NCBI RefSeq assembly: GCF_003334355.1
Contig: NZ_QOWP01000007.1
DNA length: 64,000 bases
DNA from: Escherichia coli
GTDB lineage: Bacteria > Pseudomonadota > Gammaproteobacteria > Enterobacterales > Enterobacteriaceae
Reading direction: 5' to 3' (one strand)
Every line of letters begins with the position of its first letter. Within the stretch, counting starts at the first letter, position 1. A model generated the notes under the pieces. It worked only from the letters and a program-made list of their open reading frames with translations. It was not told the DNA's origin and did not search any database. Positions 29,838 through 30,922 of the stretch are shown here, in pieces. A program made the translations under genes and the position numbers.

Positions 29838-29853
29838 GGCAAACGTTTACCTT
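29838..29853. promoter_or_regulatory. PUR-box-like operator upstream of purR (O1)
   Basis: GGCAAACGTTTACCTT, close to PurR consensus core GCAAACGTTTNC. Confidence 0.65.
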
Positions 29854-29896
29854 GCGATTTTGCAGGAGCTGAAGTTAGGGTCTGGAGTGAAATGGA

Positions 29897-30922
29897 ATGG
29901 CAACAATAAAAGATGTAGCGAAACGAGCAAACGTTTCCACTACAACTGTGTCACACGTGATCAACAAAACACGTTTCGTCGCTGAAGAAACGCGCAACGC
30001 CGTGTGGGCAGCGATTAAAGAATTACACTACTCCCCTAGCGCGGTGGCGCGTAGCCTGAAGGTTAACCACACCAAGTCTATCGGTTTGCTGGCGACCAGC
30101 AGCGAAGCGGCCTATTTTGCCGAGATCATTGAAGCGGTTGAAAAAAATTGCTTCCAGAAAGGTTACACCCTGATTCTGGGTAATGCGTGGAACAATCTTG
30201 AGAAACAGCGGGCTTATCTGTCGATGATGGCGCAAAAACGCGTCGATGGTCTGCTGGTGATGTGTTCTGAGTACCCAGAGCCGTTGCTGGCGATGCTGGA
30301 AGAGTATCGCCATATCCCAATGGTGGTGATGGACTGGGGTGAAGCAAAAGCTGACTTCACCGATGCGGTCATTGATAACGCGTTTGAAGGCGGCTACATG
30401 GCCGGGCGTTATCTGATTGAACGCGGTCACCGCGAAATCGGCGTTATCCCCGGCCCGCTGGAACGTAACACTGGCGCAGGCCGCCTTGCCGGTTTTATGA
30501 AGGCGATGGAAGAAGCAATGATCAAGGTGCCGGAAAGCTGGATTGTGCAGGGTGATTTTGAACCTGAATCCGGTTATCGCGCCATGCAGCAAATCCTGTC
30601 GCAGCCGCATCGCCCTACTGCCGTCTTCTGTGGTGGCGATATCATGGCAATGGGCGCACTTTGTGCTGCTGATGAAATGGGCCTGCGCGTCCCGCAGGAT
30701 GTTTCGCTGATCGGTTATGATAACGTGCGCAACGCCCGCTATTTTACGCCGGCGCTGACCACGATCCATCAGCCAAAAGACTCGCTGGGTGAAACAGCGT
30801 TCAACATGCTGTTGGATCGTATCGTCAACAAACGTGAAGAACCGCAGTCCATTGAAGTGCATCCGCGCTTGATTGAACGCCGCTCCGTGGCTGACGGCCC
30901 GTTCCGCGACTATCGTCGTTAA
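29897..30922 (+). CDS. purR: Purine repressor PurR, LacI family (341 aa)
   Basis: Track ORF; Lac[26 protein letters not shown]; PUR-box-like operators upstream and within 5' coding region. Confidence 0.95.
29935..29950. promoter_or_regulatory. PUR-box-like operator within 5' coding region of purR (O2)
   Basis: GAGCAAACGTTTCCAC inside codons 13-18 of purR. Confidence 0.6.

Follow-up and report, generated by a model that had tools for sequence, protein, structure and literature searches.

The purR locus

The window, as we call the whole stretch of 64,000 nucleotides of Escherichia coli DNA that was analysed, carries the purine repressor gene purR. Window coordinates are converted to those of MG1655 by adding 1,707,947, which places the purR start codon (29897) at 1,737,844. 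The 401 bases around the sites described here match many complete E. coli genomes with 100% identity; 5,425 of 5,426 such genomes contain them. The homologues of purR have the Pfam domains LacI and Peripla_BP. Upstream, on the opposite strand, lies cydH/ynhF (29 aa, 29509–29598), followed by ydhP; punR and punC are the downstream neighbours. The gene and its presumed expression signals are as follows.

29897–30922, plus strand: coding sequence of purR, the regulated gene; encodes the 341-aa purine repressor, a LacI-family protein; b1658 in NC_000913.3.
29884–29887, plus strand: putative Shine–Dalgarno sequence GGAG of purR, 9 nt before the ATG and between the sites O1 and O2.
29728–29733, plus strand: CAAAAT, a candidate for the −10 element of the purR promoter, invariant in 16 genera (low confidence).

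The putative Shine–Dalgarno sequence is part of the block GGTCTGGAGTGA, whose TGGAGT is shared without change by 16 genera. A scan for consensus promoters between 29500 and 30000 found no sigma-70-like site. Counted from the candidate CAAAAT element, O1 and O2 are located about 100 and about 190 nt downstream, with centres near +105 and +193.

Several other conserved features were seen between purR and cydH. Just 3′ of the CAAAAT element is an inverted repeat (29737–29755, plus strand), which reads ACGCTAA-ATTTA-TTAGCGT, with 7-bp arms, in Enterobacter, Leclercia and Kosakonia, and which is degenerate in E. coli (ACGCTTACACTATTTGCGT). It could form a 5′ stem–loop of the purR mRNA or be a protein-binding site. 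The blocks CTTCCCCTTT (29704–29713) and GGCCATTGACCCC (29759–29772), both on the plus strand, are invariant or nearly so in 16 genera. Further away, Rfam matches were obtained for two tRNA genes with an HPnc0260 antisense-family match overlapping the second tRNA, for rydB and for RprA (38488–38642, plus strand; 38607–38769, minus strand; 56762–56822, minus strand; 62426–62533, plus strand). None of these four regions is unusual at this place in the E. coli chromosome.

Two PUR boxes, one of them within the coding sequence

A PUR box was defined as a 16-bp imperfect palindrome with a central CG which matches ACGCAAACGTTTGCGT (or ACGNAAACGTTTGCNT). Two such sequences are present at purR.

29837–29852, no strand assigned: purR operator O1, a symmetric 16-bp PUR box AGGCAAACGTTTACCT in the 5′ untranslated leader, starting 60 nt before the ATG.
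29925–29940, no strand assigned: purR operator O2, a PUR box weaker than O1 (GAGCAAACGTTTCCAC), within the coding sequence, in the part encoding the helix-turn-helix.
29930–29932, plus strand: codon 12, AAC (Asn12), at the centre of O2; the other families of Enterobacterales have Gly at this position of PurR.

The original prediction had named two PUR-box-like sequences, GGCAAACGTTTACCTT at 29838–29853 and GAGCAAACGTTTCCAC at 29925–29940, and both are there. The first occurs as quoted, but the symmetric 16-mer begins one base earlier. The second is indeed inside the open reading frame; with the ATG at 29897, however, it occupies codons 10–15 (R10 A11 N12 V13 S14 T15) and not codons 13–18, leaving out only the first base of codon 10 and the third base of codon 15. 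The centres of O1 and O2 are 88 bp apart in the window. O1 has three mismatches to the PUR-box consensus and O2 has five, and the central AAACGTTT is perfect in both. They share the 10-mer GCAAACGTTT, which is absent elsewhere in the 64 kb on either strand; 0.35 copies are expected by chance, and at least two copies were obtained in four of 100 shuffled sequences.

Both sites were scored with a PurR log-odds matrix built from 27 ChIP-chip sites (Cho 2011, Table 1; PMC3159470), from which purR's own site had been left out. The scan, which had been suggested as a check on the prediction, gave a clear result for one site only. O1 reaches 21.2 bits and ranks first among 63,985 window positions (0.02 such sites expected per 64 kb), within the range of 11.9–24.9 bits spanned by the 27 training sites. 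O2, with 11.2 bits, falls just below the weakest of these and ranks fifth. About seven sites of this strength are expected per 64 kb, and O2 is therefore not significant by its match alone. On the matrix, O1 stands on its own score, whereas O2 needs other support, which comes from its position 88 bp from O1, its extreme conservation and published experiments.

The second-best match of the matrix in the window was found elsewhere, between ydiJ and ydiK (AGTAAATCGTTTGCGT, 60948–60963, plus strand, 18.5 bits). It corresponds to MG1655 1,768,895–1,768,910 and is inside the 'ydiJ/ydiK' PurR ChIP-chip peak, for which no motif is given in Table 1 of Cho 2011 (PMC3159470). This sequence probably explains the peak.

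Published evidence for binding and autoregulation

An operator in the reading frame had been predicted to fit autoregulation of purR, and the literature bears this out. The title of Rolfes & Zalkin (1990; J Bacteriol 172:5758) states that two sites are required and that they are downstream of the promoter; Cho 2011 (PMC3159470) also puts them there. The term 'upstream', used in the prediction for the first site, is accordingly right with respect to the start codon but, going by that title, not with respect to the promoter. By ChIP-chip, a PurR peak at purR (1,735,528–1,736,095 in old coordinates) was seen only with adenine (Cho 2011; PMC3159470). It covers both O1 and O2, which ChIP-chip cannot separate; the motif given for purR in Table 1 of that study is the reverse complement of O1. 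According to the same authors, PurR binding at purB and purR takes place within the open reading frame, where it stops elongation.

O1 is said to follow the transcription start and to precede the start codon, with O2 in the coding region, and both operators are reportedly needed for a two- to threefold autoregulation of purR. PurR is further said to bind O1 about sixfold more tightly than O2, without cooperativity; the lower matrix score of O2 agrees with this lower affinity. We are highly confident that O1 and O2 are the two operators by which PurR represses its own gene. These are already known, published sites, and nothing is added here for E. coli itself.

PurR is not the only regulator reported at these sites. 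For GalR, another protein of the LacI family, a ChIP-chip peak was found at ynhF/purR, and ChIP-qPCR validated its binding at purR. The sites inferred for GalR coincide exactly with O1 (AGGCAAACGTTTACC) and with O2 (as GTGGAAACGTTTGCT, read on the other strand), and GAGCAAACGTTTCCAC is given as a regulatory site bound by GalR (Qian 2016). The GTGG/CCAC end of O2 also resembles the gal operators. Since GalR occupies both sites in vivo, PurR is not the sole protein that may select for them. One might go further and argue that O1 and O2 are kept mainly as GalR operators, through which the galactose status cross-regulates purR. We consider this very improbable: little or no GalR-dependent change of expression was found (Qian 2016), O1 is with its 21.2 bits a near-typical PurR site, and PurR occupancy depends on adenine. 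GalR binding is moreover compatible with control by PurR, to which it may add cross-regulation without displacing PurR.

Synonymous constraint at O2

We compared 81 Enterobacteriaceae sequences; a PurR genome scan gave 80 loci, with 92–100% protein identity and 82–84% DNA identity over the gene. At −57 to −60, every one of the 81 sequences has an O1 site that scores 9 bits or more; in 79 of them O2 passes this mark as well. The spacing between the two sites varies from 85 to 88 bp and is not phase-locked.

While the amino acids of PurR residues 1–24 are essentially invariant across this set, the codons flanking the core of O2 vary. K9 is encoded by AAA or AAG (42/39 of the 81 sequences), R10 by CGC or CGA (44/35), and T17, V18 and H20 vary as well. 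In contrast, GCA for A11, AAC for N12, GTT for V13 and TCC for S14 are fixed in 80–81 of the 81 sequences, with AAC in every one. The four positions of the core at which a synonymous change would be free carry the PurR consensus base in 79–81 of 81. Only 3.9% of the usable purR codons are as synonymously invariant, and four of those are the consecutive codons 11–14. Within the gene, codon entropy reaches its minimum of 0.19 bits in the four-codon window that begins with codon 11; the next-lowest window that does not overlap the block of codons 10–19 has 1.88 bits. Likewise, the core of O2, GCAAACGTTTCCAC (nt 31–44 of the coding sequence, 29927–29940), is the longest nearly invariant run of the coding sequence with 14 nt, followed by one of 8 nt.

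All 4,608 synonymous codings of the peptide R-A-N-V-S-T were enumerated and scored with the PurR matrix. The majority coding, CGC GCA AAC GTT TCC (44 of 81 sequences), ranks first of 4,608 with 13.5 bits, and the E. coli coding, which has CGA, ranks ninth. Weighted by codon usage, the probability of a score as high as that at O2 is 0.004. The claim that a regulatory signal is embedded in coding DNA is thus borne out by the synonymous invariance of codons 11–14 and by a majority coding that is the best available. O2 is nevertheless a weak site, because the amino acids of the helix-turn-helix fix the bases of its right half and some of those of its left half. Judging from the matrix, the right half could not come near the consensus GTTTGCGT unless Ser14 and Thr15 changed.

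Residue 12 and the origin of O2

A protein search was evaluated for its best 120 matches, which reach down to about 79% identity to E. coli PurR. Among these, PurR proteins that are about 87% or more identical to the E. coli protein have A-N-V-S at positions 11–14, whereas those with 85% identity or less have A-G-V-S. Apart from a few truncated or aberrant sequences, the one exception is a metagenomic protein (P0116) with 80% identity, which has Asn12 and whose gene carries both O1 and O2. The A-G-V-S group includes Erwinia, Pantoea, Mixta, Yersinia, Serratia, Providencia, Xenorhabdus, Hafnia, Pectobacterium, Brenneria and Tatumella. The 24-residue segment around residue 12 is otherwise nearly constant between the Asn12 and the Gly12 proteins. 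Glycine is the usual residue at this turn position of the LacI-family helix-turn-helix. It is also found there in a match with an RbsR-like amino terminus.

Eight Gly12 loci from Enterobacterales outside the Enterobacteriaceae were sampled. None of the eight has a PurR-like site at +28, where the scores range from −17 to 0 bits. The codons on either side of Gly12 vary freely, with GCG, GCA, GCT and GCC for codon 11 and GTT, GTC, GTG and GTA for codon 13. Six of the eight retain an O1-like site near −60 (12–17.5 bits), weaker than the O1 of Enterobacteriaceae. Because most Gly12 loci have such a site, O1 is the older of the two. In the Gly12 locus of Erwinia amylovora (L082), two weak PurR-like sites were observed in the leader at −80 and −62 (12.6 and 12.3 bits, 18 bp apart), together with the absence of an intragenic PurR site. 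This leader pair may be a different route to two operators.

Asn12 and O2 occur together in 81 of 84 Asn12 loci; in the remaining three, the site is weaker as a result of one or several synonymous changes. O2 is unchanged in two further Asn12 loci, and in an AT-rich Asn12 lineage (L094) it has decayed to 3.6 bits. The best PurR score that can be achieved depends on residue 12: it rises from 5.8 bits (Gly) through 7.7 (Asp) and 11.7 (Ser) to 13.5 bits (Asn).

Since O2 is found only with Asn12 and is absent with Gly12, the change from Gly to Asn coincides with the origin of the intragenic operator, which from the sequences compared would be placed at the base of the Enterobacteriaceae. In this family the DNA at O2 is constrained beyond the needs of the protein, which is not so in the Gly12 species. 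A tentative reading, which we hold with somewhat less than even confidence, is that O2 arose in the ancestor of the Enterobacteriaceae through the replacement of Gly12 by Asn (GGN to AAC, possibly via Ser, AGC), and that Asn12 and the choice of the nearby codons were fixed, and are now maintained, by selection acting on the operator and not on the function of the protein. Alternatively, the replacement may have made the operator possible by accident.

The same comparisons bear on the question of whether O2 is regulatory at all. It might be an accidental by-product of coding for A-N-V-S, with O1 as the only regulatory site. The score of O2 is below that of the weakest training site, sites of its strength are expected about seven times in 64 kb, the peptide fixes most of its bases, only O1 is given as a motif in Cho 2011 (PMC3159470), and the lineage L094 has lost the match despite having Asn12. 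We nevertheless regard an accident as very improbable. It would leave unexplained that the free synonymous positions of the core keep the consensus base while neighbouring codons vary, that the core is the longest invariant run of the gene with the top-ranking coding of 4,608, and that the same codons vary freely where residue 12 is Gly; the title of Rolfes & Zalkin (1990), moreover, speaks of two required sites.

Possible roles of opposite-strand transcription and RNA structure

The Rfam family STnc550 (RF02081) matches the minus strand at 29506–29896 with 396 bits and ends at the base before the purR ATG. The match covers cydH/ynhF and the whole cydH–purR intergenic region, with O1 in antisense. 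The two sites could then chiefly control an opposite-strand transcript (STnc550 or cydH–ynhF mRNA) starting beside the purR ATG, with O2 at about −36 of its promoter and O1 inside the transcript. A MarA/RamA ChIP peak reported from Salmonella as 'purR<>ynhF' fits this; its predicted marbox, GCCCGTTTCGCTACA, is in purR codons 7–11 on the minus strand. We also note that the equivalent E. coli sequence, GCTCGTTTCGCTACA (29915–29929, minus strand), abuts and overlaps the left edge of O2. However, a tiling-array study puts the start of the ynhF transcript near 29634, about 36 nt before the ynhF ATG, and the −35 region implied by an antisense start near the purR ATG is poor. The start of the RF02081 model falls exactly on the gene boundary and its end short of the hairpin 3′ of cydH, so that its boundaries look like the coordinates of an intergenic region and not like mapped ends; in the literature searched, we found no mention of STnc550. 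What the family describes seems to be the cydH mRNA region, delimited by intergenic coordinates. A true antisense transcript from the purR ATG is largely rejected by the tiling-array start and the pattern of boundaries, and a chief role of O1 and O2 in controlling one is highly unlikely.

Least probable of all, to the point of being negligible, is an RNA element in which the two copies of the palindrome AAACGUUU would base-pair within the purR mRNA, enclose the ribosome-binding site and control translation: these 8-nt palindromes are mutually complementary and flank the Shine–Dalgarno sequence and the AUG, but the predicted fold of 29820–29960 is no better than that of shuffled sequences (−32.5 versus −32.8 kcal/mol, z = 0.09), and O1 is unpaired with O2 in both the minimum-energy and the centroid structure. 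Both palindrome copies are invariant.

Discussion

The sites O1 and O2 are best understood as a dual operator for PurR. A PurR dimer with bound hypoxanthine or guanine would occupy the strong leader site O1 and, as repressor occupancy increases, the weak site O2 in codons 10–15 as well. Both operators are downstream of the promoter, and bound PurR is therefore likely to act as a roadblock to the elongating RNA polymerase rather than by promoter occlusion. The outcome would be a mild negative feedback on the level of PurR. While the positions, the in vivo binding and the requirement for both sites are taken from the literature, the roadblock at purR is the likely extension of these data: in the sources consulted, an elongation block was demonstrated experimentally for purB (He & Zalkin 1992), not directly for purR. 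A loop between O1 and O2 was also considered and is unlikely, as the spacing varies from one sequence to another without helical phasing. Spacing that is not phase-locked fits independent binding of dimers rather than looping.

The type case of this arrangement is the pair purRo1/purRo2 of E. coli (Rolfes & Zalkin 1990), the same locus with the same sequences and no difference. A close counterpart is purB (He, Smith & Zalkin 1992; He & Zalkin 1992), which has, like purR, a PUR box in the coding sequence downstream of the promoter and is repressed through a block to elongation. purB has a single intragenic site, AGGTAACCGATTGCGT, whereas purR combines a leader site with an intragenic one and regulates its own repressor. 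Operators of the LacI family in coding DNA downstream of the promoter, as O2 of purR, are also known from lac (O2 in lacZ) and gal (OI in galE). Those auxiliary operators act by looping, by means of the LacI tetramer or of GalR together with HU; PurR, in contrast, is a dimer, and the spacing of its two sites is unphased.

For E. coli, a textbook case of a repressor operator inside coding DNA has been re-identified. It is a useful positive control, because a reading of the sequence alone recovered an experimentally established dual operator. What may be new as an addition to the known system is the link between O2 and Asn12 across species. It is of modest interest for the study of overlapping codes: a transcription factor site leads to measurable selection on synonymous sites, and an amino acid change in the turn of the helix-turn-helix coincides with the birth of the site. 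If the tentative reading proposed above is true, a regulatory DNA signal has shaped the very DNA-binding domain that reads it.
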